Shown here piece by piece: positions 3,119 through 17,567 of a stretch of 64,000 nucleotides of DNA. Every line of letters begins with the position of its first letter. Position 1 is the first letter of the stretch. Below the pieces are notes generated by a model. The model saw nothing but the letters and a program-made list of their open reading frames with translations, ran no database searches and was not told the origin of the DNA. The DNA comes from Acutalibacteraceae bacterium (GTDB lineage: Bacteria; Bacillota; Clostridia; Oscillospirales; Acutalibacteraceae): NCBI GenBank assembly GCA_045655905.1, contig JAZOQF010000193.1:1102-65101 (forward strand). The letters run 5' to 3'. The position numbers were made by a program, and so were the translations under genes.

Positions 3119-3138
3119 TCTCCTTTTGTTTACAATCT

Positions 3139-3167: not shown

Positions 3168-3176
3168 GGTATAATG

Positions 3177-3227: not shown

Positions 3228-3229
3228 CA

Positions 3230-3250
3230 CCCTCTCCTTAACGGAGAGGG
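3230..3250 (-). terminator. GC hairpin overlapping stop codon
   Basis: CCCTCTCC-TTAAC-GGAGAGGG. Confidence 0.5.
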
Positions 3251-3462
3251 ATTTCCCAAGCGACCATACCGCAATCTAATGCGTATAGGTGCACACCACG
3301 CTTTTTGCCGTTGCATTCCAAGCCGTTTCGTGCGTTGCTGCGCTTCAAAGACATTGCGATTTTGTAGCAGATTCCGCACACAAGGCTACGGTCATCGGTT
3401 AAGCCGATGCGTTCAAAAACTTCACCAGTTTCGTAGTTGACGATGCGATAAGCGATATCCAT
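3238..3462 (-). CDS. hypothetical early protein (74 aa)
   Basis: Internal ATG of track ORF 3238-3522 (MDIAYRIVNYETGE...), with GAGGAG RBS, promoter 3494-3522 and TAA stop. Confidence 0.6.
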   Translation of the reverse strand: MDIAYRIVNYETGEVFERIGLTDDRSLVCGICYKIAMSLKRSNARNGLECNGKKRGVHLYALDCGMVAWEIPLR

Positions 3463-3493
3463 AATAAGTTCTCCTCTTGTTTGGTTATACCTA

Positions 3494-3522
3494 ATTATAC
3501 CACGGATCGGGACAAAAGTCAA
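3494..3522 (-). promoter_or_regulatory. sigma70/sigmaA-type early promoter
   Basis: Minus strand TTGACT-17 bp-TGgTATAAT. Confidence 0.7.
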
Positions 3523-3560
3523 GGGTTTTGCGAAAAAAATTTTTTGGCCCGGGCTAGGCC

Positions 3561-3579
3561 GCGAGGGTCAAGCCCTCGC
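3561..3579 (-). terminator. GC hairpin overlapping stop codon
   Basis: GCGAGGG-TCAAG-CCCTCGC. Confidence 0.5.
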
Positions 3580-3999
3580 TTCCAGCCATTCTACCATTTT
3601 TCTACTCTCGTCTTTCGCTCTGATTTTGGTCTTGCTACCATTTTTCTCGCTCTCGCGGGTCAAGTAGCCAAATTCGGTAACGAAAGTTCTAAACTCGCTC
3701 GCGTTCATCTCGTAGACCTTGAACTCGCGACTTACATAGGCGAAAGTCTTGCTCGCGACTCTTGCGAAATAATCGTCAAGCATCTCGCTCATTGTAGAGC
3801 CTTTCAGTTGCCCACCAGAGCAGAGGGAGAACTTGGCACTCTTGACGCTCATATCAAGTTCGGGGATATCAGAGCCTTCATACCATTTGAGATTGCCGTG
3901 CTTGCGGAGGCAACCAGTCTTTTCGTATGTAAGGGAGGCTTCACAGTTTTGACCGTGATTGGCATAAGCGGAGATATTAGAAATAAAGTAAGTAGTCAT
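3568..3999 (-). CDS. early paralog family member 1 (143 aa)
   Basis: Track ORF. Shares an N-terminal NHGxN..E, a central S(A/V)K(S)A...C.G and a C-terminal ESEKNG..K.R.KDES..M.E.LE.RA with 5881-6282 and 6493-6894. Confidence 0.7.
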   Translation of the reverse strand: MTTYFISNISAYANHGQNCEASLTYEKTGCLRKHGNLKWYEGSDIPELDMSVKSAKFSLCSGGQLKGSTMSEMLDDYFARVASKTFAYVSREFKVYEMNASEFRTFVTEFGYLTRESEKNGSKTKIRAKDESRKMVEWLEARA

Positions 4000-4032
4000 T
4001 TGGGGTATCCTTTCCTCTTGTGGTTATACCTA

Positions 4033-4061
4033 ATTATAACATACCTCGGGCAGTTTGTCAA
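4033..4061 (-). promoter_or_regulatory. sigma70/sigmaA-type early promoter
   Basis: Minus strand TTGACA-17 bp-TGtTATAAT. Confidence 0.75.
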
Positions 4062-4200
4062 GGGGTTTGGCGAAATTTTTTTTGAAATTTTTTTGTGGCT
4101 ACTGCTGCTGCTCGCATTGGTAAAATTTACCAGGGGCGCTAGCGCGCCCGGGCTGCTTATTTTATCCTTCAGGGATCCGGGCAGCCGGGCCGGGCGCAAT

Positions 4201-4228
4201 AAAAAAGGCCTGCCGAATCCGGCAGGCC
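4201..4228 (-). terminator. intrinsic terminator
   Basis: GGCCTGCC-loop-GGCAGGCC followed by U6 on the minus strand. Confidence 0.8.
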
Positions 4229-4233
4229 CGCGG

Positions 4234-4515
4234 TTAGGGATTTTCCCTAACCTCTGCGGTATGGATGTTGAGCCGCTCATTGCATTCGTAGCAAGTTTTT
4301 GCGGCATAGTAGTCAAACGGCTTGCAGTATTCGCGCATAAAAGCGGAAATGTGTCTGCGGGTAGTTGCGGAATAAAGCCCGTATACGGTTAGCCATCCGT
4401 CCGCGTCAAGTTCGGCTACGCGCGTATAGTAAGAGTAAAGATGGATGTTGCCGTTGTCGTCAATCTCAATGTGTGCTTGTGCATAGGGCATTGCGGAAAG
4501 TTTCTTGATAGTCAT
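4234..4515 (-). CDS. hypothetical early protein (93 aa)
   Basis: Track ORF with ATG start, AAGAGGA RBS, promoter 4549-4577 and TAA stop. Confidence 0.7.
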   Translation of the reverse strand: MTIKKLSAMPYAQAHIEIDDNGNIHLYSYYTRVAELDADGWLTVYGLYSATTRRHISAFMREYCKPFDYYAAKTCYECNERLNIHTAEVRENP

Positions 4516-4548
4516 TGTTGTTATCCTCTTTTCTTTTGGTTGTACCTT

Positions 4549-4577
4549 ATTATACCATATATCGGGCAGTTTGTCAA
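4549..4577 (-). promoter_or_regulatory. sigma70/sigmaA-type early promoter
   Basis: Minus strand TTGACA-17 bp-TGgTATAAT. Confidence 0.75.
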
Positions 4578-4611
4578 GGGTTTTGATGAAAAAAGTTGAA
4601 ATTTTTTGTAG

Positions 4612-4636
4612 AAAAAAAGAGGGACATTATCCCTCT
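4612..4636 (-). terminator. intrinsic terminator
   Basis: AGAGGGA-loop-TCCCTCT followed by U7 on the minus strand. Confidence 0.75.
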
Positions 4637-4752
4637 TTGTGTAGCGCGTGGCTTGGGCATTCTGTACAGTGACAGTTGAAGCACATTTCCTCATCCTCGT
4701 GGGGATTGCGGTCACACCAACGCTCTGGTTTTTCTATGATATTTGTAGTCAT
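4627..4752 (-). CDS. Cys-rich small protein (41 aa, probable zinc binder)
   Basis: My translation is MTTNIIEKPERWCDRNPHEDEEMCFNCHCTECPSHALHKEG, with AGAGGAAAG RBS and promoter 4785-4813. The track ORF 4521-4715 is in another frame and lacks these signals. Confidence 0.5.
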   Translation of the reverse strand: MTTNIIEKPERWCDRNPHEDEEMCFNCHCTECPSHALHKEG

Positions 4753-4784
4753 TTGTCTTTCCTCTTTCTTTTTTGTTATAACTA

Positions 4785-4813
4785 ATTATACCACATATCG
4801 GGTAGTTTGTCAA
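4785..4813 (-). promoter_or_regulatory. sigma70/sigmaA-type early promoter
   Basis: Minus strand TTGACA-17 bp-TGgTATAAT. Confidence 0.75.
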
Positions 4814-4965
4814 TAGGTTTGTAAAAGTTTTTTATTTTTTCTGCGAGTTTTTCGCTTGCCTTGTTTTTTATCCTCGCGCAATTTTCTGAGCCTTGCGCGC
4901 TGACAACAAAAAGCACGCGCGAACTTATCCTCTTTATAGTCTTTTTTATGTTCGTTGTTCGCCAT
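4810..4965 (-). CDS. very basic small protein (51 aa)
   Basis: My translation is MANNEHKKDYKEDKFARAFCCQRARLRKLREDKKQGKRKTRRKNKKLLQTY, with AGAGAGG RBS. The TGA stop is embedded in the next -35 hexamer (TATTGACA). Confidence 0.5.
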   Translation of the reverse strand: MANNEHKKDYKEDKFARAFCCQRARLRKLREDKKQGKRKTRRKNKKLLQTY

Positions 4966-4989
4966 TGTTTTTACCTCTCTTTTGTATAT

Positions 4990-5018
4990 ATTATACCATA
5001 TTTCGGCTCATTTGTCAA
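4990..5018 (-). promoter_or_regulatory. sigma70/sigmaA-type early promoter
   Basis: Minus strand TTGACA-17 bp-TGgTATAAT. Confidence 0.75.
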
Positions 5019-5058
5019 GAGTTTCGGCGAAAATTTTTTTGGCGCCCGGGCCGCGGCC

Positions 5059-5077
5059 GAGAGGGATGTTCCCTCTC
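5059..5077 (-). terminator. GC hairpin overlapping stop codon
   Basis: GAGAGGGA-TGT-TCCCTCTC, followed by GGCCGCGGCCCGGGCGCC. Confidence 0.45.
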
Positions 5078-5237
5078 AAGCCACCTCTGTATAGGTAACA
5101 ACATTGTTGACGGTATACAGTTTTTCAATCTTGATTGACGGATTGGTTTTGAAGACATAGTTGCAAAACTCACCGCCATTTTCAAAATAGAGTCTGCCGT
5201 TGTTAAGGGTTACGATGATATAGGAAAGATGTGCCAT
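5076..5237 (-). CDS. hypothetical small early protein (53 aa)
   Basis: My translation is MAHLSYIIVTLNNGRLYFENGGEFCNYVFKTNPSIKIEKLYTVNNVVTYTEVA, with AGAGGTAAA RBS and promoter 5271-5299. Below the track cutoff. Confidence 0.55.
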   Translation of the reverse strand: MAHLSYIIVTLNNGRLYFENGGEFCNYVFKTNPSIKIEKLYTVNNVVTYTEVA

Positions 5238-5270
5238 AATTTTTACCTCTTTTTCTTTTTGTTATACCTA

Positions 5271-5299
5271 ATTATACCATATCGGGAGAGGGATGTCAA
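5271..5299 (-). promoter_or_regulatory. sigma70/sigmaA-type early promoter
   Basis: Minus strand TTGACA-17 bp-TGgTATAAT. Confidence 0.75.
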
Positions 5300-5347
5300 G
5301 GGGTTTTGAAAAAAAGTTAAAAAATTTTTTGGCGCCCGGGCCGCGCA

Positions 5348-5384
5348 CGAAAGCACCCCAAGCAAGAGGAAAAACTTGGGGTGC
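5348..5384 (-). terminator. intrinsic terminator of the RNA cassette
   Basis: GCACCCCAAG-12 nt loop-CTTGGGGTGC, a 10-bp stem followed by CUUU on the minus strand. Confidence 0.65.
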
Positions 5385-5562
5385 CAAATAGGGGAACCGA
5401 AGCCCACACCTATTTTGTTCAATTTTAATTTACCCTTATTTTTAAGGGTTGAGTGTTGTAAAAGGGAAGCCTTGCAAGGTGACTTCTCCCCTCTCCTAGC
5501 ACCTTTTCTCCCTCTGCGAGAGTGGCAGCCTTGAAGTACAGTTCGTCGTCCTTCCCTCTTAC
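5348..5562 (-). ncRNA. candidate structured small RNA (~215 nt)
   Basis: Lies between consensus promoter 5569-5597 and terminator 5353-5384. The transcript contains no AUG. A closing helix GUAAGAGGGAAG / CUUCCCUUUUAC is present, plus hairpins AAGGUG..CACCUU, ACCCUUA..UAAGGGU and AAAUAGG..CCUAUUU. Confidence 0.4.
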
Positions 5563-5568
5563 ACTCAT

Positions 5569-5597
5569 ATTATACCACAAAACTTGTGGTTTGTCAA
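5569..5597 (-). promoter_or_regulatory. sigma70/sigmaA-type early promoter
   Basis: Minus strand TTGACA-17 bp-TGgTATAAT. The -10 abuts the ATG of track ORF 5425-5610, which argues against that ORF. Confidence 0.75.
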
Positions 5598-5668
5598 GGG
5601 ATTTCTGCAAAAAACTTTAGAATTTTTTGCATCCTCGTGCGTTCCTATGCGACTCGTCTATCGCAATT

Positions 5669-5749
5669 TTATGAGCACTAAGGTCTATTGCTACTTCCAA
5701 CCGTAGCCCCACACCGCAGATGTGGCTCAGAGGTATCTCCCCTTGACAT
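5669..5749 (-). CDS. possible leaderless micro-ORF (MSRGDTSEPHLRCGATVGSSNRP, then TAG-CS-TAA) or short RNA
   Basis: The ATG lies 4 nt after the -10 of promoter 5754-5782. The ATGTCAAG context matches 1967. The region also folds into several small hairpins. Confidence 0.2.
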
Positions 5750-5753
5750 TATT

Positions 5754-5782
5754 ATTATAACATATTGTGGCTTGCTTGTCAA
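5754..5782 (-). promoter_or_regulatory. sigma70/sigmaA-type early promoter
   Basis: Minus strand TTGACA-17 bp-TGtTATAAT. Confidence 0.7.
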
Positions 5783-5791
5783 TATGGCATT

Positions 5792-5851
5792 TTGCACAAA
5801 CTTTGGGGCTGCTGGCGCGCAGCTTTTGTGCATATTGACGGGCGCCCGGGC
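5792..5851. promoter_or_regulatory. operator-like inverted repeat plus GC palindrome (copy f)
   Basis: TTGCACAA 5792-5799 and TTGTGCAt 5826-5833 with a 26 bp gap, then ATTGACG and GCGCCCGGGC 5842-5851. Confidence 0.45.
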
Positions 5852-5866
5852 GCTAGCGGCCGGGGC

Positions 5867-5895
5867 AAAAAAGAGAGGGCTTATACCGCCCTCTC
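5867..5895 (-). terminator. intrinsic terminator
   Basis: GAGAGGGC-loop-GCCCTCTC overlapping the TAA, followed by U6 on the minus strand. Confidence 0.75.
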
Positions 5896-6282
5896 CTCAA
5901 GATATTTCAGCATTGCTTGTGACTCATCTTTTAATCTCATCTTAACCGCACCGCCGTTTTTCTCGCTCTCGGTTGTAACCGTTGCAAATGCGGTACAGAA
6001 TGCGATGTATTCGGCTTTAGTCATCTTGTATGCGATGCCAGCCTTTGTGCCGTAGATGTATTCGGTAGCACAGTCATCTTCAAGATACTTGACGATGTCA
6101 GTGCCCTTGCACACAGTTGCTCTCGCGCTCTTGATTTGGTAAATCAGGCAATCAGTGCCTTTGTTGTGCGCGATGTTGTCGGCTTTTTCAAGCTTGCCTG
6201 TGAGCAAGTAGCGGATGGATTGCTCTACATTGTGCCCGTGGTTGTGGTAGTTGTTGAGATAAGTGAAGTTGAAAGTAGTCAT
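5881..6282 (-). CDS. early paralog family member 2 (133 aa)
   Basis: Track ORF. About half its residues match 6493-6894 (LTGK.EKADNIAH.KGTD, KSARATVCKGTDI, ESEKNGG). Confidence 0.75.
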   Translation of the reverse strand: MTTFNFTYLNNYHNHGHNVEQSIRYLLTGKLEKADNIAHNKGTDCLIYQIKSARATVCKGTDIVKYLEDDCATEYIYGTKAGIAYKMTKAEYIAFCTAFATVTTESEKNGGAVKMRLKDESQAMLKYLEERAV

Positions 6283-6314
6283 TGATTGTGTCCTCTCTTG
6301 TTTGGTTGTACCTT

Positions 6315-6343
6315 ATTATACCATATAAACCCGGGCTTGTCAA
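6315..6343 (-). promoter_or_regulatory. sigma70/sigmaA-type early promoter
   Basis: Minus strand TTGACA-17 bp-TGgTATAAT, with CCCGGG inside the spacer. Confidence 0.75.
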
Positions 6344-6376
6344 GGGGTTTGCAAAAAATTTTTAAAAAATTTTTGT

Positions 6377-6490
6377 AGCTGCTGCTGGTGCGCGTGTGCG
6401 CGTGTATACACGGGTGCTGCTGGTGGTGCTGCTGGTGCTGCGTGTGCGCATATATATACGCGGGCGGGCGGGCGCGTGCGCGTGGACGGG
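6377..6490. repeat. simple-sequence mosaic I
   Basis: Successive blocks of (GCT/GGT)n, alternating GC/GT runs (gcgcgtgtgcgcgtgtatacac), tatatata and GGGCGGGCGGGC...GGGG. Confidence 0.9.
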
Positions 6491-6509
6491 GCTCACCTTG
6501 CGGTGAGCC
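6490..6509 (-). terminator. GC hairpin overlapping stop codon
   Basis: GGCTCACC-TTGC-GGTGAGCC. Confidence 0.5.
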
Positions 6510-6894
6510 ATTCCAACATTCTTTGTGTTTCGTGTCCCAGCCTGATTTTTGGGGTTCCCCCGTTCTTTTGGCTCTCACGGGTTACTGTGCCGAAGACTTG
6601 CACAAATTGCTCATATTCAGTACGGCTCATTATGTAGGCGGTGCCGTCTTTGGTGATGTAGGCGTATTTGCTTGCCTTGTCGGCATCAAGGTAGGCTTTG
6701 ATGTCGGTGCCCTTGCAGACGGTTGCTCTTGCCGATTTTACGGAATAGATGCCGATGTCGGTACCCTTGTCATGTGCGATGTTGTCGGCTTTTTCAACCT
6801 TACCCGTTAGGGTGTAGCGGAACCATTGTTCAAGGTGTTGTCCGTTGTTGCGGTAGGTGCGGTTAAAATTGGGGGTTAGAGTGAAGTGTTTCAT
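6493..6894 (-). CDS. early paralog family member 3 (133 aa)
   Basis: Internal ATG of track ORF 6493-6954 (MKHFTLTPNF...), with AGAGAGGA RBS, promoter 6926-6954 and TGA stop. Confidence 0.75.
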   Translation of the reverse strand: MKHFTLTPNFNRTYRNNGQHLEQWFRYTLTGKVEKADNIAHDKGTDIGIYSVKSARATVCKGTDIKAYLDADKASKYAYITKDGTAYIMSRTEYEQFVQVFGTVTRESQKNGGTPKIRLGHETQRMLEWLTAR

Positions 6895-6925
6895 TTTTGT
6901 ATCCTCTCTTGTTTGGTTGTACCTT

Positions 6926-6954
6926 ATTATACCATATGCACGGGCGGTTGTCAA
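6926..6954 (-). promoter_or_regulatory. sigma70/sigmaA-type early promoter (leftward arm, first cassette)
   Basis: Minus strand TTGACA-17 bp-TGgTATAAT. Confidence 0.75.
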
Positions 6955-7039
6955 TAGGTTTTTGAAAAAAAGTTAAAGAAATATTGCACAAATTTGAGAG
7001 GGAAATTTTGTGCAACTTTTTTTCAAAAACCTATTGACA
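6949..7039. promoter_or_regulatory. palindromic divergent control region
   Basis: The 26-bp arm tgtcaataggtttttgaaaaaaagtt (6949-6974) is the exact reverse complement of 7014-7039. Each arm contains a -35 hexamer. TTGCACAA 6984-6991 and TTGTGCAA 7008-7015 lie between them (copy g). Confidence 0.8.
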
Positions 7040-7062
7040 CGGGCGGAAAAGTGTGCTATAAT
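7034..7062 (+). promoter_or_regulatory. sigma70/sigmaA-type early promoter
   Basis: TTGACAcgggcggaaaagtgtgcTATAAT with a 17 bp spacer. Confidence 0.75.
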
Positions 7063-7095
7063 TAGTACAGAAATAAAGAAAGAGAGGGAAAAACA

Positions 7096-7197
7096 ATGTT
7101 AGGCGGTATTCTTTTTTTCGCAACCGTTGCGCTGTGTGCTTTTCTTCTTTGGGGCGCGTTTGGTGTACGCTCTATCAGAGAAGCGATTATGAGATGA
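7096..7197 (+). CDS. small hydrophobic peptide (33 aa)
   Basis: MLGGILFFATVALCAFLLWGAFGVRSIREAIMR, with GAGAGGGA RBS, TGA stop and terminator 7200-7222. Confidence 0.5.
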   Translation: MLGGILFFATVALCAFLLWGAFGVRSIREAIMR

Positions 7198-7199
7198 GA

Positions 7200-7222
7200 G
7201 GGAGCCGAAGGCTCCCTTTTTT
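7200..7222 (+). terminator. intrinsic terminator
   Basis: GGGAGCC-GAA-GGCTCCC followed by T6. Confidence 0.85.
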
Positions 7223-7258
7223 CTTAAAAAATTTTTTAAAAAATTTTTCAAAAAGTGC

Positions 7259-7287
7259 TTGACACGGGCGGAAAAGTGTGCTATAAT
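7259..7287 (+). promoter_or_regulatory. sigma70/sigmaA-type early promoter
   Basis: Same 29-mer TTGACAcgggcggaaaagtgtgcTATAAT as at 7034 and 8330. Confidence 0.75.
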
Positions 7288-7322
7288 ATAGACAGAAAGC
7301 AAGAGAAAGAGAGGAAAAGAAA

Positions 7323-7460
7323 ATGCTTTGGACTATCAAAAACACAATAACAGGACAGGTAGCCGCGGCTTTTGGTGTTACCAAAAAAGAGGCTTGCGAT
7401 GCTCTCAATTGGAATTATCGCGTTTGCGAAGTTCTCGCCTCTACTTGCCGTTATTGGTAA
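7323..7460 (+). CDS. small early protein (45 aa)
   Basis: MLWTIKNTITGQVAAAFGVTKKEACDALNWNYRVCEVLASTCRYW, with AGAGAGGAAAAG RBS, TAA stop and terminator 7469-7491. Confidence 0.5.
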   Translation: MLWTIKNTITGQVAAAFGVTKKEACDALNWNYRVCEVLASTCRYW

Positions 7461-7468
7461 GAGGGAGA

Positions 7469-7491
7469 GGGAGCCGAAAGGCTCCCTTTTT
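7469..7491 (+). terminator. intrinsic terminator
   Basis: GGGAGCC-GAAA-GGCTCCC followed by T5. Confidence 0.85.
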
Positions 7492-7520
7492 GTATTGCTT
7501 TAATGTTAAAATTTTACAAT

Positions 7521-8034
7521 TTTTAATGCTACTGCTTGCTGCGTGTTGCCGCTGCTGCCTGCTGCTGCTCGTGCTGCCGTCGCCGTTGCTGATGGCGTGT
7601 GCGTGCGTGCGTGCGTGCGTGCGTGGGTGTGTGTGGGTGTGCTTATCCCTATCCTATCCCTATCTTATCCCTATCCTATCCCTATCCTATCCCTATCCTA
7701 TCCCTATCCTATCTTTATCCTATCCCTATCCTATCTTTATCCTATCTTTATCCTATCCCTATCCTATCTTTATCCTATCTTTATCCTATCCCTATCCTAT
7801 CTTTATCCTATCCCTATCCTATCTTTATCCTTGTCTTGTCTTGTCTTTGTCTTGTCTTTGTCTTGTCTTTGTCTTGTCTTTGTCTTGTCTTTTGTGTGTG
7901 TGTGTGTGTGTATGTGCAGACGGAGAGCGACGGACAGAACAACGGAGCAACGGAGAGAGAGGGAGAGAGGGAGAGAGGGAGAGAGAGGGAGAGAGGGAGA
8001 AAGGCTTTTTCTAAAAAAAAAAAAAAAAAAAAAA
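7521..8034. repeat. simple-sequence mosaic II (about 510 bp)
   Basis: Ordered blocks: CTG/GCC-rich 7528-7595; (GTGC)n and GT-rich 7605-7642; a G-free TATCC/TATCTT-type repeat 7643-7830; (CTTGT/CTTTGT)n 7829-7892; (GT)n 7893-7916; ACGG-rich 7921-7953; polypurine (GGGAGAGA)n 7953-8003; A22 8013-8034. Confidence 0.95.
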
Positions 8035-8057
8035 TAAAAAAAATTTTTCAAAATCCC

Positions 8058-8086
8058 TTGACACGGGCGAAAAACTATGTTATAAT
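8058..8086 (+). promoter_or_regulatory. sigma70/sigmaA-type early promoter
   Basis: TTGACAcgggcgaaaaactatgtTATAAT with a 17 bp spacer. Confidence 0.75.
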
Positions 8087-8139
8087 TAGTACAGAAAGAG
8101 GGAAGGAAAACCGACTAAACCAAGAAAGGAAAGAGGAAA

Positions 8140-8256
8140 ATGTTTGATAGAAATGCTTTGGAAAACTTTGTGTGTGGTATCGTTACAAAAGGCTGGATTG
8201 TAGTCGTTGCAATGTTTGCAGTAACTATGGCTTTGTTGATGACAGTAGGAGCATAA
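8140..8256 (+). CDS. small hydrophobic peptide (38 aa)
   Basis: MFDRNALENFVCGIVTKGWIVVVAMFAVTMALLMTVGA, with AAGAGGAAA RBS and TAA stop. Confidence 0.5.
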   Translation: MFDRNALENFVCGIVTKGWIVVVAMFAVTMALLMTVGA

Positions 8257-8263
8257 AAGGAGA

Positions 8264-8321
<58 letters not shown>

Positions 8322-8329
8322 AAAACCCC

Positions 8330-8358
8330 TTGACACGGGCGGAAAAGTGTGCTATAAT
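8330..8358 (+). promoter_or_regulatory. sigma70/sigmaA-type early promoter
   Basis: TTGACAcgggcggaaaagtgtgcTATAAT. Confidence 0.75.
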
Positions 8359-8415
8359 ATAGACAGTAAAAGGGAAGGAAAACCGACTAAACCACAAGAA
8401 AGAAAGAGGTAAAAA

Positions 8416-8598
8416 ATGAAACTTTATATTGTTATGTTCAAGGATGCTTGCGAATGGGAAGCACAGGAATGGTTGGGCGGAGTATTCTCCACCGAGGAAA
8501 AAGCTCAGGCGTATATGGAAGCATACATCAACGATGATGATGACGACGATGTAGAAGGATACATCACCACCCGCACCTTGGATGACGATGAGTTATAA
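8416..8598 (+). CDS. acidic small protein (60 aa)
   Basis: Track ORF with AAGAGGTAAAAA RBS and a D/E-rich C-terminal half (DDDDDDVEGY...DDDEL). Confidence 0.7.
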   Translation: MKLYIVMFKDACEWEAQEWLGGVFSTEEKAQAYMEAYINDDDDDDVEGYITTRTLDDDEL

Positions 8599-8605
8599 AA
8601 AGAGA

Positions 8606-8629
8606 GGGAGCCGAAAGGCTCCCTTTTTT
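8606..8629 (+). terminator. intrinsic terminator
   Basis: GGGAGCC-GAAA-GGCTCCC followed by T6. Confidence 0.85.
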
Positions 8630-8631
8630 CT

Positions 8632-8653
8632 AAAAAAAAAAAAAAAAAAAAAA
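8632..8653. repeat. poly(A)22 tract upstream of promoter
   Basis: A run of 22 A. Confidence 0.95.
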
Positions 8654-8675
8654 TAAAAATTTTTTTAAAAACCCC

Positions 8676-8704
8676 TTGACAAACCCCTCAAACTATGCTA
8701 TAAT
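8676..8704 (+). promoter_or_regulatory. sigma70/sigmaA-type early promoter
   Basis: TTGACA-17 bp-TGcTATAAT. Confidence 0.75.
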
Positions 8705-8735
8705 ATAGACAGAAAGAACGAAAGAGGTAAACACA

Positions 8736-8834
8736 ATGAAAACACTTAAAACTTTTGCAAGAGAGAATAACGCGACTGAGGTAAACATCTACCATCGCAG
8801 AAAGACCGCAACCTTAAAGGGTCTTTGCAAGTAA
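8736..8834 (+). CDS. basic 32-aa peptide, paralog 1
   Basis: MKTLKTFARENNATEVNIYHRRKTATLKGLCK, with AAGAGGTAAA RBS. About 70 percent identical to 9363-9461. Confidence 0.55.
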   Translation: MKTLKTFARENNATEVNIYHRRKTATLKGLCK

Positions 8835-8840
8835 CCGAGA

Positions 8841-8865
8841 GGAAGCCGAAAGGCTTCCTTTTTTT
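8841..8865 (+). terminator. intrinsic terminator
   Basis: GGAAGCC-GAAA-GGCTTCC followed by T7. Confidence 0.85.
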
Positions 8866-8900
8866 ACTAAAAAATTTTTTAAAAATTTTTCAAAAATCCC

Positions 8901-8929
8901 TTGACAAATGCCCGGGAATTTGTTATAAT
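8901..8929 (+). promoter_or_regulatory. sigma70/sigmaA-type early promoter
   Basis: TTGACA-17 bp-TGtTATAAT, with CCCGGG in the spacer. Confidence 0.75.
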
Positions 8930-8986
8930 TAATACAGAAAGAGGGAAGAAAAACCGACTAAACCACAATACAGAAAGAGGTATAAA

Positions 8987-9235
8987 ATGACTAAACTTGA
9001 ATTGATGGCAATGCTTGAAGGTATCGCAGATGATGCAGAAATCACTTTTGTAGAAAGCGTGAGAGACCGCGATGGTTATCCCCAAGATGAAAGAGTAAAG
9101 GTCTACAAGGTACTTGGTGGCGAGGTTGTAAGTGTGAGAGGCGAATGCGGTTGCTACACTCTTGAAAATCTCACAGATGAAATTGAGTATATCCGCTGGA
9201 ATGAATATGGCGGATATTACCGCAGAAAGAAATAA
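8987..9235 (+). CDS. hypothetical early protein (82 aa)
   Basis: Track ORF with AAGAGGTATAAA RBS and TAA stop. Confidence 0.7.
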   Translation: MTKLELMAMLEGIADDAEITFVESVRDRDGYPQDERVKVYKVLGGEVVSVRGECGCYTLENLTDEIEYIRWNEYGGYYRRKK

Positions 9236-9242
9236 AAAGAGA

Positions 9243-9266
9243 GGGAGTCGCAAGACTCCCTTTTTT
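9243..9266 (+). terminator. intrinsic terminator
   Basis: GGGAGTC-GCAA-GACTCCC followed by T6. Confidence 0.85.
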
Positions 9267-9302
9267 ACTAAAAAAATTTTTAAAAAATTTTTTATAAACC
9301 CC

Positions 9303-9331
9303 TTGACAAACTCGCCAAACTATGATATAAT
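9303..9331 (+). promoter_or_regulatory. sigma70/sigmaA-type early promoter
   Basis: TTGACA-17 bp-TGaTATAAT. Confidence 0.75.
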
Positions 9332-9659: not shown

Positions 9660-9688
9660 AAAAAAAGAGAACCCCTTTCGAGGTTCTC
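9660..9688 (-). terminator. intrinsic terminator
   Basis: GAGAACC-loop-GGTTCTC followed by U7 on the minus strand. Confidence 0.75.
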
Positions 9689-10058
9689 AATCCATTAAAA
9701 TTCGCTTGATCTAATTTAAGCTTTCGACCGCAATTCCTGGAGCGCTCAATTCCAATCCAACCAAAACATTGCCGCTTCTTTTATAAATTCCAGAAGCCAA
9801 ACTGAAAATCATATCGCCACCAACGATCTTACAGTTCAAAATTTTCAACTCTTCTGCGGTCGAAAAATCCAACATTGCGGCAAAAGAGCCATCAGACTGC
9901 ACACTGACCTGAACATTTTGCGGCGGGATCTAACAAAAATGCGCGAGGTTAGCTTGTTTTTCCGCGACGGTGCGGGATAATAGCTACTGAAAGTCAATAT
10001 TGTTTGGACATACTTCGTCTTCTGGCATTATTTTTGTTGTTTTTACTGTTGTTTCCAT
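9687..10058 (-). CDS. hypothetical protein (123 aa) with 3 in-frame TAG
   Basis: Extends track ORF 9711-9902 through TAG at 9711, 9930 and 9984 to a TGA at 9687. Promoter 10121-10149. No good RBS is present, so the start (ATG 10058 or 10028) is uncertain. Confidence 0.4.
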
Positions 10059-10120: not shown

Positions 10121-10149
10121 ATTATATCGCAATTTGCGGCCGAAGTCAA
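10121..10149 (-). promoter_or_regulatory. sigma70/sigmaA-type promoter
   Basis: Minus strand TTGACT-17 bp-TATAAT. Confidence 0.65.
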
Positions 10150-10173
10150 GTTCTTTTTTACGCCTCTGTAAAT

Positions 10174-10202
10174 TTGACTTTTACAATCTTTTGTGGTATA
10201 AT
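10174..10202 (+). promoter_or_regulatory. sigma70/sigmaA-type promoter at head of packaging/structural operon
   Basis: TTGACT-17 bp-TGgTATAAT, 29 nt upstream of ATG 10231. Confidence 0.7.
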
Positions 10203-10230
10203 TATAATATAAGGATGAAGGAGGAAAGAA

Positions 10231-11232
10231 ATGATAGAATTCAAAACTGCAAAATGTCCGAAGTGCGGCAAAATTGCGGAAATAATTTTCTCAAACAATC
10301 CTCTGGTGCCAGGAATTTGCAATCGTTGTATTTGCAATGAATTGGATGGCGGAAACCTTGAACAAGCAGATTTCTTTTGTAGAACTTATAATTTGCCCTT
10401 TAGACCAGAACGTTGGATCGAGTTGTAGGAAAGATGCGGCGAAGGAGTTTTTAAGCAATACACCAAAGAATTTTTTGAGACAGATAGCAATAATCTTTAT
10501 CGACAGGACGTGACTCCTGATTGGTGGAAGCGAATAAATGAAGAGTGGGCGAATTGCAGAACTTACGAAGAAGTTTTAGCTAAAATTGAACCCATTAAAC
10601 AATCTTTTATTGCGCGAAGCCAAATCAAATGGGGGCCTAACTACACTTTTGAAGAATATGTGCAGTTAGATAGTTTGTTAATTAGCACATTGCGTGCTGG
10701 TGACATTTCTAACCCTTTGCGAATTGATGCTATCAAAAAAGCTTGTAAGATTTCCGTTGAATTGGATAAAGCCATTTACGCTGGCGATAGCAAGGGTATT
10801 AAAGAGTTGTCCAGTTCTTATAGTTCATTTACGAAATCCGCTCAGCTTGACGAAATTATTGCATCAGACAACAATGATGTAATTTCCACTGTTGCGGAGC
10901 TAGCCGACTACATTGAGAAATGCGGCGGCCAGTATACATATTATGACGGTGTTCAGCGCGACATCGTTGATAAAACAATTGCAGATATTAAAGAATATAT
11001 CCGAGTTTTGGTTCAAGACGCGACTGGTTTGAGTGCAACATTGGAAAATATTGCGGAAAATTATAAGCGTAGTGTGGCTACAGCTGCGGATGAAGAGTCT
11101 TTTGCCGCGGTTTCGTTAGAAGAACTAATGAAACAAAATGAAGGAGATAATGAAGTGCTGGATGCCGAACTCGCGGCGGAAAGCCTTGATGAAGACTTCA
11201 TGGGTGCAGAAGACGGAGATGAATATTTTTAA
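10231..11232 (+). CDS. zinc-ribbon protein, positional candidate small terminase (333 aa)
   Basis: Track ORFs 10231-10428 and 10510-11232 share a frame and are joined through TAG 10426. GGAGGAAAG RBS, N-terminal CPKC...CNRC, acidic C-terminus, and a TAATG overlap with TerL. Confidence 0.55.
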
Positions 11233-13016
11233 TGAATACCTCTGATCTTCTTTACATAGAGCCTGAAATTGATGAATATATAAGTTTTTTCAATTCAGCA
11301 AATACAAAAGATGTTAAAATATTGCGGAAAGAGCGCGTTAAAGAAAAACTTCCGCTTTATTTAGAAGCATTAAACACATTCCTGGTTTATCCTGATATTT
11401 TGTCGGACATCATGACTCCCAAAAAGAGTAAGTTCAGTATGTTCTTTGCACAAAGAATTGTATTGCGCTCGATGGCTCGACACCGACAATCTTTTTTAAC
11501 ATTCCCGCGTGCATTTAGTAAGTCTTTTTTGGCTGACTATTTTGGTAACATTAAATCGATGTGTACTCCACATTGCGATGGCTTTGTTGCCGCAGCAACC
11601 GGTAAACAGGCGGCTCAAATCGTTAAACAGAAGTTTAGCGGAGACCTCTGGGTTAAGTTCCCTTTGCTGAAAAACGAAATGCGGCGAAATGGCCCAGTTG
11701 CACCATACATTCAAGGTGAGGACTATGCGGAATTTCGATTCACTAATGGTTCGAAGTTTGACGTAATTGGCGGACACCCTCGTGGTGGCCGTCGTAGTTA
11801 TGGTATTTTTGAGGAGATTATTGAACAAGACCAAACAAAGGTTAATGAGGAACTTATTCCTCTAATGAACTCGCCGCGAACCCAGTTCGACGGCACGCTT
11901 AATCCCCACGAAAAACAAGGGCAAAAGATTTATATCACAACCGCAGGTTATCAATAGACTTTTGCATACGATAAATGTATTGAAACGCTTTGTTACTGTG
12001 CTCTTGACCCTGACAACTATATTTGTTTGGGCGGAAGTTATGTAATTCCTTTGATGCACGGTCGTCTTGAGGAACAAACAATGCGCGAACTTTTCTCTTC
12101 TCCGTCTTTTGACCGAGGAAGTATGGAACGCGAGTATTGCTCAAGATGGTCTGGCGCAAGAAGTGGTTCAATATTTGGAAGCAAAACTATTGATACTTTG
12201 CGCAAGGTTGTGCGTGCGGAATTTAAAAAAGGCAGTCTTGATGAAAAAGAATTTTACGCTATTTCAGCGGATATGGCGAAAGATGGTAGCGCAAATACCG
12301 CAGTAATTGTTTATAGAGTTACGCCCACTGAATATATGTTCAATTATAGGGCAATTAATTTGTTTACAATTAATAGCACAGACTATGAAATTGTGGCGAA
12401 TGAGCTTAAAAAGACAATTATGAACTACGATGCTCGTTTGTTTATTTATGACGCAAACGGTATTGGTGCGGCATTGCGAGACTGGATCAACAAGCCCACT
12501 CGTGATCGTGAGTCTGGAATGACTTTGCCTGGGTATGGAATTATTAATCCTCCTGATAGTGCAAAATCAGACCTGATTACTTACACAAAAGACCGCGAAA
12601 TTTGCTACGAGATTAAATCTGGTGGTAAACAGGGCGAAATGATTCATAAAATATTCTTTTCTCGTCTTAGTAATGGCTCTGTTCGTTTTCTTATTAGAGC
12701 AAATGAGGCGATATTGCGGCTTTAGAGAAATAAAAATTTTTTATAGGCTCCAGAACACGTAAAACGCGCAAAACTTGCTCCATATAAGTTCGCGGATTAG
12801 ATGGAAGAGGAACTTAAAAACCTCATTATCACAGACACAAGCGATAATATTACAAGTACAATGCGAGTTGAAAGACGCAGTAAAAAGATTCAAAAAGACT
12901 TTTTCTCTGCGGCAGAATACGGCATTTATGGCGTGTCCACTTACATTGAACAAAAATATTACGCAAAGAAAAATAAGCCCACATTCCGCTGGACTAATGC
13001 TGTTTTAATAAGTTGA
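11232..13016 (+). CDS. terL: terminase large subunit (594 aa)
   Basis: Three same-frame track ORFs joined through TAG at 11955, 12723, 12744 and 12798. Walker-A-like FPRAFSKSF, Walker-B-like GIFEEI, nuclease-region acidic motifs ISADMA and IYDANG, and a TGA stop. Confidence 0.8.
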
Positions 13017-13026
13017 GGTGAGTAAA

Positions 13027-14553
13027 ATGCCACTTTTTAAAAAATCAGCAAAAAGCGAGCCTCAAATAGATACAGAAAATTTAGCTCGTTTTAAAATCAC
13101 AAAGGCTGGCATACAGTAGATGTATGCTGATGATTAGAAGGTGCGTGCGGCAGCTGGTAAAGCAACCAGCGGCTCTTCCACGCTACGCTCTCTGACCGCG
13201 GATACCTTCACTTCAAACTACTATAACTTGGGTAGTTTGGATATAGTCAGAAAATACTCCAAAGAGGCCTATGATTTTTATCCCGCATATCAGATTTTAA
13301 TTGATTATCTTGCAAATATGTGTTTATGGAAATACATTTACACTCCACGCAAGGTAAAAGATAAGAAATCTGCGGTAAATTTTGAAGAGGTCTATTAGGA
13401 AATGAGCCAGGTAGTTGATGGTATTTCTCTTGAAACTACTGGCCCGCAAATTATAACCAACTTGCTTATCAATGGTGCAGTTTATTTGTATAGTGTTAAA
13501 CACACTTCTTCAAAAACTGTTACAACAATCCAATTGCCTGTTAAGTATTGCAGACCTGTTGGTTTAACCCAGTTCGGAACCTATCTTTATCAGTTTAATT
13601 ATCAATATTTTGATTCTTTGAGCCTCTCTGCAGAAGAACTTTAGGTAGTTATGTCTATGTATCCTTCTGAGATGGCCGCTGGATATAAACTTTATAAGGA
13701 GAATCCTTCTTTGTATCAATGGCAACAGCTAAACTCCAAGTTTAGCGGCGCGATTCTGCTGAATGATGATGGTTTCCCTACCAAGTTAAGAGCTTTGTTA
13801 AACATTCTTCACTACAACGAGTATCTGGAGAATGAATTAACCAAGAGCCAGCAACAGCTTGATAAAATCATTTCTCACAAAATTCCCACTTGGCAAGATC
13901 AATTGCTTATGGGAATGGAAGAAATGGCTTCGTTACACAAGTCTATTGCAGACAGGCTGTCAGTTAATAAGCACCTTAAACTTGTTACCACTTTTGGTGA
14001 TATGGGTGTTTTACCTGTTGGTAAGGACGACACCAAAGAAAATAAGACATTGAGCAACGCATATGATGCAATATTCAATAATGCGGGCGAAAATGCTCAT
14101 CTTTTCTCTGGAGATTTAAAGGAGTCGGTTGAATTTGCTTCAAAAAGAGATCAATCAATCGTTCTCAAATATGTAAATTAGATTGCAAATTATTTTAATC
14201 TGGTTGTAAATAATTTGTTTAATTTTAAAGGCTATCAATGTGACATTCAAATTTTGCCAATTACAATTTATAACTACAGTGATATGATGGAAATGTACCG
14301 TCAGTCTGCCACTCTTGGTGCGGGCAAGCTTGAGTTTATTGTTTCTACTGGCACAAAACAATGTCATATTGCCGATAAAATTGAACTTGAAGATTATTTG
14401 CGATTGGATAAACTTAAACCTCTGTCTACTTCTTACACACAGACTGAAACCGTTACCGAAACAGAGGAAGTGGTTGAAGAACCTGTTGTTTCTCCCGAAG
14501 AAGAGAAAGAGGAAAACACAACTGAAGTGGAACAAGAGGTAGTAACAGAATGA
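13027..14553 (+). CDS. portal protein candidate (508 aa)
   Basis: The ATG at 13027 and four same-frame track ORFs are joined through TAG at 13117, 13135, 13396, 13642 and 14179. It lies directly after TerL, has an acidic C-terminus and ends in TGA. Confidence 0.55.
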
Positions 14554-16001
14554 TAAGAATACCAACCAATGTTCCCGCTTTTATTCAGTAGGTCGAGGAT
14601 GCCGGCTCTGGCAAATATTCTAAGGCAAAACTTAGCGTATTTTATCAGGGTCGTACGGCCGATAACCGCATTTTTACAGAGCAGTTTTCCAATGAATTAC
14701 TGAAAACTTTACCTCTGACTCCTGTTGTTGGTTATTTTTCAAAAGAAAAAGACGACTTTAAGGGACACAATCCTGAACAGTATATTTATGGTGTGGTTCC
14801 AGAGTCCGCTACAATCTCTTTTGAAGAAGACGATGCAGGACATAAATTTGCGGTTGTTGATGTCATTCTTTTTACTGAGAGAAATGACAATATTGGCGAA
14901 GTTGCGAAAAAGATTGTTGGAAAACAACAGTCCTTGGAACTCAACAAAAACAACCTAAAATATAAGATTAATAGAGACCATTTTGGCCGCTTCGAAAGTC
15001 TTGAGTTTATTTCTGGTGAATTTGTTGGTTTGAGTGTACTTGGTGATGATGAAAAACCCGCATTTCCTGGGTCTCACTTCTTTACCGCTGAAGATGCTCC
15101 TGAACTTTGCACAAAGCTTGAAACATTCTTGCAGATGCTGAATGATGATGGAGGCAATATGGAAACTTTAGAGATCAAAGAATTCGAAGGACCTCTTGCA
15201 AGTTTCATTGAATGGACTGCGCAAGAGACTGAAGAAGCAATTTATGCGGCTTTGGCCCGCAATAATGTCTACGGCTACATTCTTCAGAACACAAGTTCCT
15301 ACGCTATCGTCCGCTGCTACAATGAAGCAACAAGAGCTGCTGAAGACTACAAGTACCCCGTTACAGTTAACGAAGAGTGCGTTGCAGTTCTTGGCGATCC
15401 TGTTCGAGTTTACGGTCGCTTCTACACAGAAGAGGAGATCGAAACCACCGAAAGCAAAGAGATCTTTGCCGAGGAGGAAAAGAAGGAAGAGGAAGATGCG
15501 GAGAAAGAACCTGTTGAAGAAACTCCCGCTGAAGAGACTCCTGAAGAAGAGAAAACTTCTGAGGAGAAAACTGAAGAGGAGAAGTTTGCTGAAGAAAAAT
15601 CTACTGAAGAGGAAGAGCCTTCCGAAGAAAAATTCGTTGAGAAGGAAGAGGAAGAGGAAACTCCTTCCGTAACAGAAGATGACCCCGTAGAAGAAAAAGA
15701 AGAAGACAAGCGAGACGAAGAAGAGGAACGTGTAGAAGATACCGCAGATACTCATTCCGCCGCATTGTCTGATAAAACAGAAGGAGAAGAACTTCATGGA
15801 TTTACCGCATCGGTAGATGGATCTACCCCAGAAGCAGTAAAGTTCTCTAAAGAAGAACTTGTAGATGCTTTGGCCGCGGCGCTTAAGATTGTCATGAATG
15901 ACAATGATGGAGTTGTTCCCGTTGTAACCCGTTTCGTAGAAACTACTCCGGCTTATGATGAAACCAATCCGGAGCATGTAATAAAAAAATATTCTAAATG
16001 A
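14550..16001 (+). CDS. head scaffolding / prohead-protease-like protein with Glu/Lys-rich domain (483 aa)
   Basis: ATGA overlap with the portal gene, TAG at 14589, same frame as track ORF 14793-16001. Contains a long EEK low-complexity segment typical of scaffolds. Confidence 0.5.
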
Positions 16002-16015
16002 GGTGCTAATTTAAT

Positions 16016-16516
16016 ATGATTACTCGTTTAATGCCTAAATTTAAGGTACTTGAGCCTAGCAATCTGACTGGTCTTAGAAATGGCCACGTGCTCGCTCAGA
16101 TGCCCGTTGCAGCTGACATCACCGTCAAGACTGTAGGTGAGCACAAGTTCATCGAGAATGGTCTTTTTGTTGGCCTGAATGCAGAAGGCAAGATTACTAA
16201 TCTTGACGATGCTACAAGTAAGCAGGTTTTCGTTCACTTTGACGAAGAGCTCTCCACTATTCTGGATGCTGCTTGCTACTATGCTACTCCTGTCGAGGAG
16301 TCTGAAGAAACTTATATCCGTGCCGTAGCTATGTATGTTGGTGACACAGTTGTAACTGACAACTATGCTGGCGAGCTTACTACTGCTAAGTATGCAAAGG
16401 TTGTTGACGGTGTTGCTACCCTCCAGACCGCTGCTGATGAGAGCTCCCTGTTTATCGCTAAGGCTACCACTCTTCCCACTGGTGAAGCAGCTGTAGAATT
16501 AATGCTCTACAAGTAA
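16016..16516 (+). CDS. hypothetical head protein (166 aa)
   Basis: Track ORF with no TAG. GC3-rich codon usage like the adjacent capsid gene. Confidence 0.65.
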   Translation: MITRLMPKFKVLEPSNLTGLRNGHVLAQMPVAADITVKTVGEHKFIENGLFVGLNAEGKITNLDDATSKQVFVHFDEELSTILDAACYYATPVEESEETYIRAVAMYVGDTVVTDNYAGELTTAKYAKVVDGVATLQTAADESSLFIAKATTLPTGEAAVELMLYK

Positions 16517-16540
16517 TTTAAATTGAGAGGTATAATATAA

Positions 16541-17554
16541 ATGGCTACTGTAACTGAATTAAAGACTCTGATTAAGAGTGCTCTTACTCCCGCATCCGCT
16601 AATTTCAGCGCAGACAATGCACTGGTTGAGGCTATTTGCGAGACTTATGACCTCCGTAACGCTAGTGCTCGTGAGATCCGCGCTCACCAGGCTGAGGTTT
16701 TTGCTCTGATTGAGGAGCAGATTGAGGCTGTTCTGCCTAAGGCAGTTGAAAACATTGTAGGCGGCTTTGCTGAGGTTAAGACCTTCGCTTATGACGCTGA
16801 GCCTGTTTTTGAGCTGAAGGGTATGGGCAAGGCTCGTGCTCGTATGGGTATCGTTCCTGGCGCACGTGCTGGTATTTACAAGGCTAGACGCCTTGACAAC
16901 AAGTATGTTTCCGTTCCTGTAAAGGTTGAGACCGTTGCAGTTATGGTTACTCTTGAGGAAATTCTGCTTGGTAAGATGTCCCTCGCAGAGCTCATGGCTA
17001 ACATTGCTAATGGCTACGCTGAGCTGATTTACATCAATGCTATTAAGGCTCTCCGCACCGCTAAGACCCTTGCTCCTGCAGCTAACTGCAAGACTGGTAG
17101 TGGTTTTGATGGCGCTGCACTTGATGGCCTGGTAAGCATCGCTAGAGCTTACGGTTCTCCCGTTATCATGGGCTTCCGTTCTGCTCTGTCTAAGATCAAC
17201 AATGGTGCAGGTTGGGATAATGTAACTCCTAACATCTCTGCAGCTGATGCAGATGACATCCGTAGAGCTGGCGTTATTGCTATGTATCACGGTGTTCCCG
17301 TAGTTGAGCTTCCTAACTACCTGGTTGACGAAACTAATTCCGGCTTCGTATTCAGCGAGGGCGATATCTTCGTTCTTCCCGCTGAGTCCCGTCCTGTAAA
17401 GGTTGCTATGAAGGGTGACCTTGTAATCGTAGAGAACCAGCATGCTACTGGCTCTATGGAGCAGCAGGCTCACCGTTTGATGGGTGTAGGTCTTGTACTC
17501 GCTAACAATGTTTGCGTTTACACTGACAGCTCCATCTCTGGCGGTATTGCTTAA
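16541..17554 (+). CDS. major capsid protein candidate (337 aa)
   Basis: Track ORF located after the scaffold gene. It has a strong RBS, distinct high-expression-type codon usage, no TAG, and hairpin 17568-17593 downstream. The long antisense ORF 16559-17605 is rejected. Confidence 0.6.
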   Translation: MATVTELKTLIKSALTPASANFSADNALVEAICETYDLRNASAREIRAHQAEVFALIEEQIEAVLPKAVENIVGGFAEVKTFAYDAEPVFELKGMGKARARMGIVPGARAGIYKARRLDNKYVSVPVKVETVAVMVTLEEILLGKMSLAELMANIANGYAELIYINAIKALRTAKTLAPAANCKTGSGFDGAALDGLVSIARAYGSPVIMGFRSALSKINNGAGWDNVTPNISAADADDIRRAGVIAMYHGVPVVELPNYLVDETNSGFVFSEGDIFVLPAESRPVKVAMKGDLVIVENQHATGSMEQQAHRLMGVGLVLANNVCVYTDSSISGGIA

Positions 17555-17567
17555 TTGATTTAAAATT

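Follow-up and report, generated by a model that had tools for sequence, protein, structure and literature searches.

The locus analysed here raises the question of what times the late genes of a phage that reads the amber codon TAG as sense: transcription from its late promoters, or the ability to decode TAG. Borges et al. 2022 (10.1101/2021.08.26.457843) put forward a model of stop-codon recoding for phage late/lytic genes. Their preprint does not discuss promoters, the idea of recoding as a timer has never yet been tested at promoter level, and a literature search brought up no study that follows the expression of a recoded phage over time. An earlier note on this DNA had argued that the late operons carry the same host-type consensus promoters as the early genes, so that TAG decoding rather than transcription might set their timing.

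Layout of the window and distribution of TAG

The window, i.e. the whole 64-kb stretch of DNA that was analysed, falls into five parts once TAG is read as a sense codon, and its final ORF is given after them:

1-9.7 kb: array of small genes without recognisable function
10231-32878, plus strand: packaging, head and tail block
32918-52161, minus strand: replication block with Pol III alpha (DnaE), RecJ-like protein, primase, DnaB-like helicase, gyrase A and B, and ligase
52451-57740, minus strand: operon with an exonuclease-like gene, RNase H and a UvrD-type helicase
57942-63708, minus strand: fibre-like genes
63723-63953, minus strand: final ORF, C-terminus of an anaerobic ribonucleotide reductase

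Related contigs measure 97-122 kb, and the window therefore covers about two thirds of a phage genome of roughly 100 kb. Orthologues of its capsid protein, tail-tube protein and their neighbours belong to Pfam families named after SPβ, viz. YonB, YonD_N, YomW and YomU_Tube; these matches are precomputed ones, on orthologues with 57-69% identity to the window capsid protein, which has at least 479 homologues. The capsid protein itself showed about 27% identity to SPβ phages in tblastn, and the portal protein matched phrog_2739, while megablast of the window against GenBank phages gave no match, exact-protein look-ups and an exact DNA scan of IMG/VR for the genome of the window were negative, and no Rfam RNA family was found in the window or in the related loci L003 and L005. 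The window comes from an amber-recoded gut phage with structural genes resembling those of Bacillus phage SPβ. Its host is most likely a member of the Bacillota (Firmicutes), since the distant capsid matches all lie in phages of Bacillus, Enterococcus and Clostridioides, and the TGnTATAAT promoters and strong AGGAGG motifs at the ribosome-binding sites agree with a host of this type.

The late genes on the plus strand, with the number of TAG codons where counted, are as follows:

10231-11232: first gene of the packaging operon, 333 aa, phrog_3314, in the position of the gene before TerL in SPβ
11232-20616: remainder of the packaging, head and proximal-tail operon, comprising the next five genes and further ones
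11232-13016: TerL, 4 TAG
13027-14553: portal, 5 TAG
14550-16001: YonD-like, 1 TAG
16541-17554: major capsid, 0 TAG
19858-20616: tail-tube-like, 0 TAG
20733-32878: tail operon with distal tail and baseplate genes, up to 32878
20733-21446: first gene of the tail operon, TAGs at 20991 and 21072
24134-29272: tape-measure gene, 15 TAG

When TAG was counted block by block, its usage was distributed in the following manner:

Early genes: none in 1964 codons (0 per 1000), 0 of 23 genes with TAG
Replication block: 6 in 6156 codons (0.97 per 1000), 4 of 15 genes with TAG
Plus-strand late block: 46 in 7409 codons (6.2 per 1000), 11 of 18 genes with TAG
Operon from the promoter at 57799: 9 in 1682 codons (5.35 per 1000), 5 of 6 genes with TAG

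Every complete early ORF ends in TAA or TGA, and the early genes, free of TAG throughout, are workable under the standard code of the host. The agreement with the Borges et al. model, which had been asserted beforehand, is thus borne out by the rise from 0 in early through 0.97 in replication to 6.2 TAG per 1000 codons in structural genes; as in that model, the early genes fit either code, the structural genes are TAG-rich and the replication genes vary. ORF sets were compared under each code, and TerL and portal of the window are full length only with TAG read-through. Seven of the 18 late genes, i.e. major capsid, tail-tube-like and five others, are free of TAG, and most of these have a ribosome-binding site of their own. 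The minus-strand operon at 52451-57740 also encodes, between the exonuclease-like gene and RNase H, a 713-aa protein (54613-56754) with five TAGs and no family match.

The earlier note had drawn attention to the first gene of each late operon, in which a TAG comes up within about 90 codons. The positions were found to be right, with the first in-frame TAG at 10426 (codon 66 of the gene at 10231) and at 20991 (codon 87 of the gene at 20733), but this placement is not special, because at the 6.2 TAG per 1000 late codons for which it was computed the chance of finding both is P = 0.18. The TerL ATG overlaps the stop codon of the first gene (TAATG) and the TerL ribosome-binding site is weak, so that the TAG at codon 66 could also lower TerL; on this arrangement TerL could be translationally coupled to the first gene and be reduced by TAG termination within it.

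Two late promoters and their class

We scanned the window with the strict pattern TTGACW-N17-TATAAT and derived the expected count from shuffled sequence. As against 0.03 matches expected, 28 were observed, of which 23 lie inside the 9.4-kb early array and five elsewhere, the latter all intergenic at 10149(-), 10174(+), 20680(+), 52238(-) and 57799(-). The promoters and the elements associated with them are:

357-9331: early array with 23 strict promoters, 16 on the minus strand at 357-6954 and 7 on the plus strand at 7034-9331
9667-10058, minus strand: transcription unit of the divergent promoter, with one 123-codon ORF (10058-9687) and a terminator (9688-9667)
10149-10121, minus strand: divergent promoter TTGACT-17-TATAAT, without TG (CGa), 11 of 12 consensus bases
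10174-10202, plus strand: packaging/head promoter TTGACT-17-TGgTATAAT with extended -10, 11 of 12 consensus bases
20637-20660, plus strand: intrinsic terminator closing the head operon, 9-bp stem followed by TTTTT
20680-20708, plus strand: tail operon promoter TTGACA-17-TGtTATAAT, 12 of 12 consensus bases plus TG
52210-52238, minus strand: promoter AAAT-TTGACT-TTT ... TGaTATAAT heading the TAG-poor ligase, gyrB, gyrA ... DnaE block
57771-57799, minus strand: promoter heading the operon of the exonuclease-like gene (TTG start near 57740), the 713-aa gene, RNase H and the UvrD-type helicase

The coordinates, hexamers and 17-bp spacing given previously for 10174-10202, 10121-10149 and 20680-20708 were all correct, as was the distance of 29 nt from the -10 hexamer of the packaging promoter to the ATG at 10231, which is preceded by AGGAGG at 10219-10224. 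The second consensus promoter heads the tail genes, and it is placed directly 3' of the intrinsic terminator. Leaders of the late promoters measure 24-28 nt; no hairpin or terminator and no obvious operator was seen in the 28-nt packaging leader, and no hairpin in the tail leader. The packaging promoter is doubled, in that TTTACA-17-TATAAT at 10180-10208, offset by 6 bp, makes two overlapping near-consensus promoters. We conclude that the packaging and tail operons start with promoters that the host sigma-A/sigma-70 holoenzyme should recognise. The presence of host-type consensus promoters on the late operons is thus upheld by the excess of matches over expectation, by their intergenic position and by the conservation of their hexamers described below.

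The -35 hexamers of the divergent promoter at 10149 and of the packaging promoter are separated by 24 bp. L003 and the L001 group likewise have a divergent promoter, at a distance of 155-300 bp. Its transcription unit in the window has a single long ORF, 10058-9687, which contains three in-frame TAGs, lacks a ribosome-binding site, and gave no Pfam match and no homologue in any of the loci fetched; whether it codes for protein is uncertain. The divergent transcript showed no unusual RNA structure (z = 0.18).

The early promoters, which the earlier note had counted as 24, came to 23 strict matches plus one near-match. The TG of the extended -10 is present in 21 of the 23, and there is about one promoter per small gene. 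Most of them carry an upstream element, AAAAATTTTTTCAAAAACCCC, with an A-tract/T-tract at about -40 to -60, which looks like a complete UP element made up of a distal and a proximal part. This conserved A/T tract, together with CAAAAACCCC immediately 5' of the -35, marks the early class and is missing in all five non-early promoters. When a weight matrix was built from the 45 nt 5' of the -35 in the 23 early promoters, 18 of them scored above +14 bits, while 10149, 10174, 20680, 52238 and 57799 scored -9 to -32 bits. The split was less clean in the 20 nt downstream, where the non-early promoters scored -6.7 to +5.9 bits and five of the 23 early ones fell in the same range. Five of the 23 early promoters are also without the UP-like tract, so the boundary between the classes is not absolute. 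Thus, the claim that the late promoters look the same as the early ones held good for the consensus core and failed for the region upstream of it.

The promoters at 10174, 52238 and 57799 have in common the -35 context AAAT-TTGACT-TTT and an A/T-rich start region, and weaker versions of this context occur near 39420 (before DnaE) and at 47010-46982. Since it shares AAAT-TTGACT-TTT with them and lacks the UP-like tract, the packaging promoter groups with the promoters of the replication genes and not with the early ones. The tail promoter at 20680 has TTGACA in place of TTGACT and shares with the packaging promoter only the downstream ATAAATATAAG. Going by these flanks, the late promoters form a second, UP-less class of promoters of the host sigma-A type.

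Several further observations were made in the array at 357-9331, which looks like a host-takeover early array. Runs of 20-35 A residues precede the plus-strand promoters 8058, 8330 and 8676. The early promoters without the UP-like tract (385, 1371, 2000, 3167 and 5782, minus strand) have TTTGTGCAA instead, which is found upstream of 6954 and 7034 as well and at some early promoters forms the inverted repeat TTGCACAA...TTGTGCAA; this repeat is a possible operator. No nearby ORF with a ribosome-binding site follows the early promoters 5569-5597, 5754-5782, 1865-1893 and 1972-2000 on the minus strand or 8058, 8330 and 8901 on the plus strand, and a repeated leader, ACAGAAAGAGGGAAGGAAAACCGACTAAACCA, is common to three plus-strand promoters of this kind. 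Such promoters may give rise to small RNAs or long leaders.

We also looked for transcription machinery encoded by the phage itself. In tblastn, SPβ YonO had no match in the window or in 40 loci, the D-x-DGD motif was absent from ORFs above 250 aa of the window, L005, L007 and L008, and Pfam scans of 50 proteins from the window and its relatives returned no sigma, DNA-binding or regulator domain, all of which holds at the sensitivity of Pfam, tblastn and motif search. The early ORFs had no function recognisable by Pfam, and any of them could in fact activate late genes, act against a sigma factor or modify polymerase.

Code states, promoters and the suppressor tRNA in relatives

Packaging-to-tail regions of 12-14 related lineages were taken from IMG/VR, ENA and Logan, and the window proteins were aligned to their translations. 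Three code states were found within this one phage family, in whose closer members TerL is 55-78% identical to that of the window:

TAG in frame: the window (23 TAGs in 4492 aligned codons) and L003 (10 TAGs)
TGA in frame, mostly against Trp of the window: L010, L011, L017, L014, the L001/2/4/9 group and the L026-29 group
Standard code: L012, L013, L015 and the L021/22/25 group, with full-length gene calls and 0 in-frame stops in about 3600-4100 aligned codons

L003 and the window have no TAG site in common. In-frame TGAs fell on Trp of the window at 10 of 13 sites in L010, six of seven in L011 and 11 of 14 in L017. The L001/L002/L004 group, which has no in-frame TAG and uses TAG as stop, was considered as a further standard-code group and rejected on account of its in-frame TGAs on window Trp. 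TerL is interrupted in L003 (about 11293-11539), L004, L010, L013, L014 and L017, often with a GIY-YIG endonuclease gene inside, and the ribonucleotide reductase gene of L008 is interrupted in a similar way, which suggests intron or homing-endonuclease insertion in TerL.

Both late promoters were present at orthologous sites in all lineages whose operon start could be located. Orthologues of the packaging promoter were found in 13 related loci (11 of them used for identity), 21-36 nt before the first gene begins, with the form AAAT-TTGAYW-17-(TGn)TATAAT and 9-12 of 12 consensus bases. At the tail junction all 12 lineages had a hairpin plus T-run followed by AAC-TTGACA-N14-TGn-TATAAT, the hairpins of the relatives being read by eye off the alignment and the terminator scan being run on the window alone. 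Here the -35 is identical in 12 of 12, the -10 in 11 of 12 (one has TACAAT), and both the TG and the 17-bp spacing in 12 of 12. Taken over 11-12 lineages, whose proteins are 55-78% identical, hexamer identity was 0.78-1.00 as compared to 0.40-0.47 in the spacer and in the 30 nt upstream, and the spacing was always 17. As the same promoters occur in standard-code, TGA-recoded and TAG-recoded members, their design is ancestral and does not depend on recoding; members with the standard code cannot owe their timing to a stop codon. A possible tendency to stronger packaging promoters in recoded lineages was looked for: the values were 10, 10, 10, 11 and 11 of 12 in standard-code lineages (the fifth from L024, whose code state is uncertain) and 9-12 of 12 in recoded ones, and with lineages so few and non-independent we claim no trend.

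A motif, ATTCCAA, lies upstream of the packaging -35 at a fixed -27 or at about -52 in eight of the 14 loci scanned, among them L010 (2169-2185), L017, L014, L015, L001 and L002, and in some it forms the palindrome ATTCCAA-N-TTGGAAT; upstream of the packaging promoter of the window and of L003 there is none. Its position hints at a candidate regulator site.

The 64-kb window contains no tRNA gene. The closest TAG-recoded relative, the L003 phage with 78% TerL identity, was walked via L005, L007 and L008 into the part of the genome that is missing from the window, and the counterpart of this part contains, besides genes of nucleotide metabolism and 12 ordinary tRNAs, a single tRNA(CUA):

L008 15506-15595: amber-suppressor tRNA(CUA) of the L003 phage, 90 nt

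The tRNA(CUA) operon starts at TTGACT-17-TATAAT-ATATATATAAAGGA (15198-15226) and continues into dUTPase, PhoH (4 TAGs) and the reductase gene. Its promoter is of the UP-less and not of the early class, as known from this one relative with 78% TerL identity; the early promoters of the same relative carry the palindrome GTAGTCTG-N-CAGACTAC. A region past the early array, at about 13000-20500 in L005, has poor coding potential under either code and a run of alanine codons, and contains no tRNA gene and no Rfam family. A phage-borne suppressor tRNA(CUA) in a relative and mixed code states in one clade are further likenesses to the Borges et al. model.

The tRNA(CUA) of L008 has a long variable arm of 5 bp, a G1-U72 pair and the discriminator A73, and was labelled tRNA-Pyl(cta) by ARAGORN. 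It is, as far as its predicted shape goes, Leu/Tyr/Ser-like, the long variable arm setting it apart from the usual tRNA-Gln. We compared 15 TAG sites of the window with four relatives. Four sites (11955, 12723, 14179 and 18179) align mainly to CAA/CAG, and four, all in the portal gene (13117, 13135, 13396 and 13642), mainly to GAA/GAG, three of the latter in all four relatives and one in three of the four. The remaining sites align to Tyr/His, Thr, Met or others, with 10426 at Tyr or His. Gln fits best among the candidates for the sense of TAG, but the long-arm tRNA(CUA) of the relative does not speak for it.

What sets the timing of the late genes

With the suppressor tRNA of the relative expressed from an UP-less promoter, TAG decoding cannot lag far behind late transcription unless transcription itself is timed. 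If the UP-less promoters fire immediately, the tRNA is made immediately; if they are delayed, the delay is transcriptional; TAG decoding is therefore no replacement for transcriptional timing, although accumulation of the suppressor tRNA could add some lag. The claim that TAG decoding rather than transcription sets the timing is not sustained, given the orthologous promoters in standard-code and TGA-recoded relatives, and further points against it are the absence of the early UP-like element from the late promoters, the same UP-less class of promoter on the tRNA(CUA) of the relative and the TAG-free late genes, which include major capsid and tail-tube. A plausible role for TAG gating is that of a partial translational checkpoint, which would at most be extra to transcriptional timing.

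The better reading, which we consider moderately probable, is a hierarchy of host-promoter classes to which TAG suppression adds a second, partial checkpoint. Host RNA polymerase would transcribe all temporal classes, and the early promoters, having a consensus core, an extended -10 and a full UP-like element, would outcompete the others for polymerase when infection begins. The UP-less promoters would gain later, through the action of early genes, reduced competition and template copy number. In the TAG-recoded member the suppressor tRNA, made from the same UP-less class, would add a feed-forward translational checkpoint, so that terminase, portal, tape-measure and baseplate proteins would not appear in full length before enough of the tRNA had built up. 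This checkpoint would be partial and secondary, and transcriptional control would stay in place.

That the promoter matches are chance occurrences or functionless relics is hardly credible: consensus scans in general are no proof of function, but the surplus of matches over expectation, the intergenic position of all the non-early ones, and hexamers and spacing kept in 11-12 lineages while the flanks drift all speak against it. A model in which the late promoters fire immediately along with the early ones, and the decodability of TAG alone times the late proteins, would account for late cores as near consensus as the early ones, for a 28-nt leader free of terminator and obvious operator, for the early TAGs in both first genes and the coupling of TerL to gene 1, and for TAG-free early and TAG-rich late genes in a phage where no polymerase or sigma factor of its own was found. 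We hold it to be quite improbable, however, because these promoters are shared by relatives with the standard code, in which neither TAG nor TGA could act as a gate, seven of the 18 late genes escape the gate and are mostly provided with ribosome-binding sites of their own, the UP-like element that marks the early class is missing from the late promoters, the suppressor tRNA of the relative, being on the same promoter class, would be made just as early, and early TAGs in both first genes are expected by chance with P = 0.18.

Timing might instead be wholly transcriptional, with a factor among the unannotated early proteins that switches on the UP-less promoters, frees them from repression or silences the early ones. 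Recoding would then be there for some other reason, e.g. to keep down the amounts of low-copy proteins, to prevent expression in the wrong cell or state, or because of conflict with the host or other phages. Distinct promoter classes with class-specific flanks are in keeping with such a factor, as are the regulator-like ATTCCAA site in eight of 14 loci, the GTAGTCTG-N-CAGACTAC sequences at early promoters of relatives and the TTTGTGCAA inverted repeats at some early promoters of the window; TAG, moreover, is enriched in the low-copy TerL, portal, tape measure and baseplate and absent from capsid and tail-tube. Against this, ATTCCAA is missing upstream of the packaging promoter in the window and L003, no DNA-binding or sigma domain was seen in any scanned protein, and the copy-number rule is not strict, as the L003 capsid gene has one TAG. 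We regard this alternative as rather unlikely, and prefer the hierarchy of host-promoter classes with a partial TAG checkpoint.

The comparison with known systems places this arrangement more clearly. In SPβ the structural and lysis genes form one operon (Forrest et al. 2017, PMC5467207). Its promoter lies 5' of yonK and is used by YonO, a single-chain RNA polymerase. The window has a homologous structural module in the same order (first gene, TerL, portal, YonD-like, capsid), but unlike SPβ its late genes form two plus-strand operons, each with a sigma-A consensus promoter, plus the minus-strand fibre-like genes, and neither a YonO homologue nor a D-x-DGD motif was found here. The late operon of phage lambda stands on a constitutive host-type promoter, PR', and is gated by a terminator just downstream that is read through with Q. 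What we propose is similar in that a host-type late promoter would be timed after initiation, the gate here being translational; it differs from PR'/Q in that no terminator lies between the late promoters of the window and their first genes, the sole terminator being upstream of 20680. Promoters boosted by UP elements are known from E. coli rrnB P1 and from the host-takeover early regions of SPO1 and T5. The early array of the window is like these in its consensus core, TGn and AAAAATTTTTTCAAAAACCCC, a putative UP element, and the late promoters, being without AAAAATTTTTTCAAAAACCCC, are unlike them. Taken by itself, the finding is an ordinary, well-conserved promoter pair, since sigma-A promoters and recoded phages are already known kinds; what is added to the work of Borges et al. 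is that late promoters have been mapped and seen to be independent of the code.

A further proposition, to which we give only a slim chance, is that the family lacks a YonO-type late polymerase and has closely similar UP-less host promoters on its middle and late operons, so that in recoded members stop-codon suppression alone would split late from middle expression, via a tRNA made as a middle gene. If true, this would be a feed-forward translational timer, with recoding as the substitute for a missing late transcriptional switch, and it would explain why recoding has occurred repeatedly in the family, with TAG in at least two and TGA in at least six of about 14 lineages sampled. Nature has set up an experiment in this family, whose members share homologous late operons with orthologous host-type promoters and differ only in having TAG, TGA or neither in their late genes. 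Given an isolate or a surrogate host, the timing of late mRNA versus late protein across the three code states could separate timing set by recoding from a transcriptional programme.
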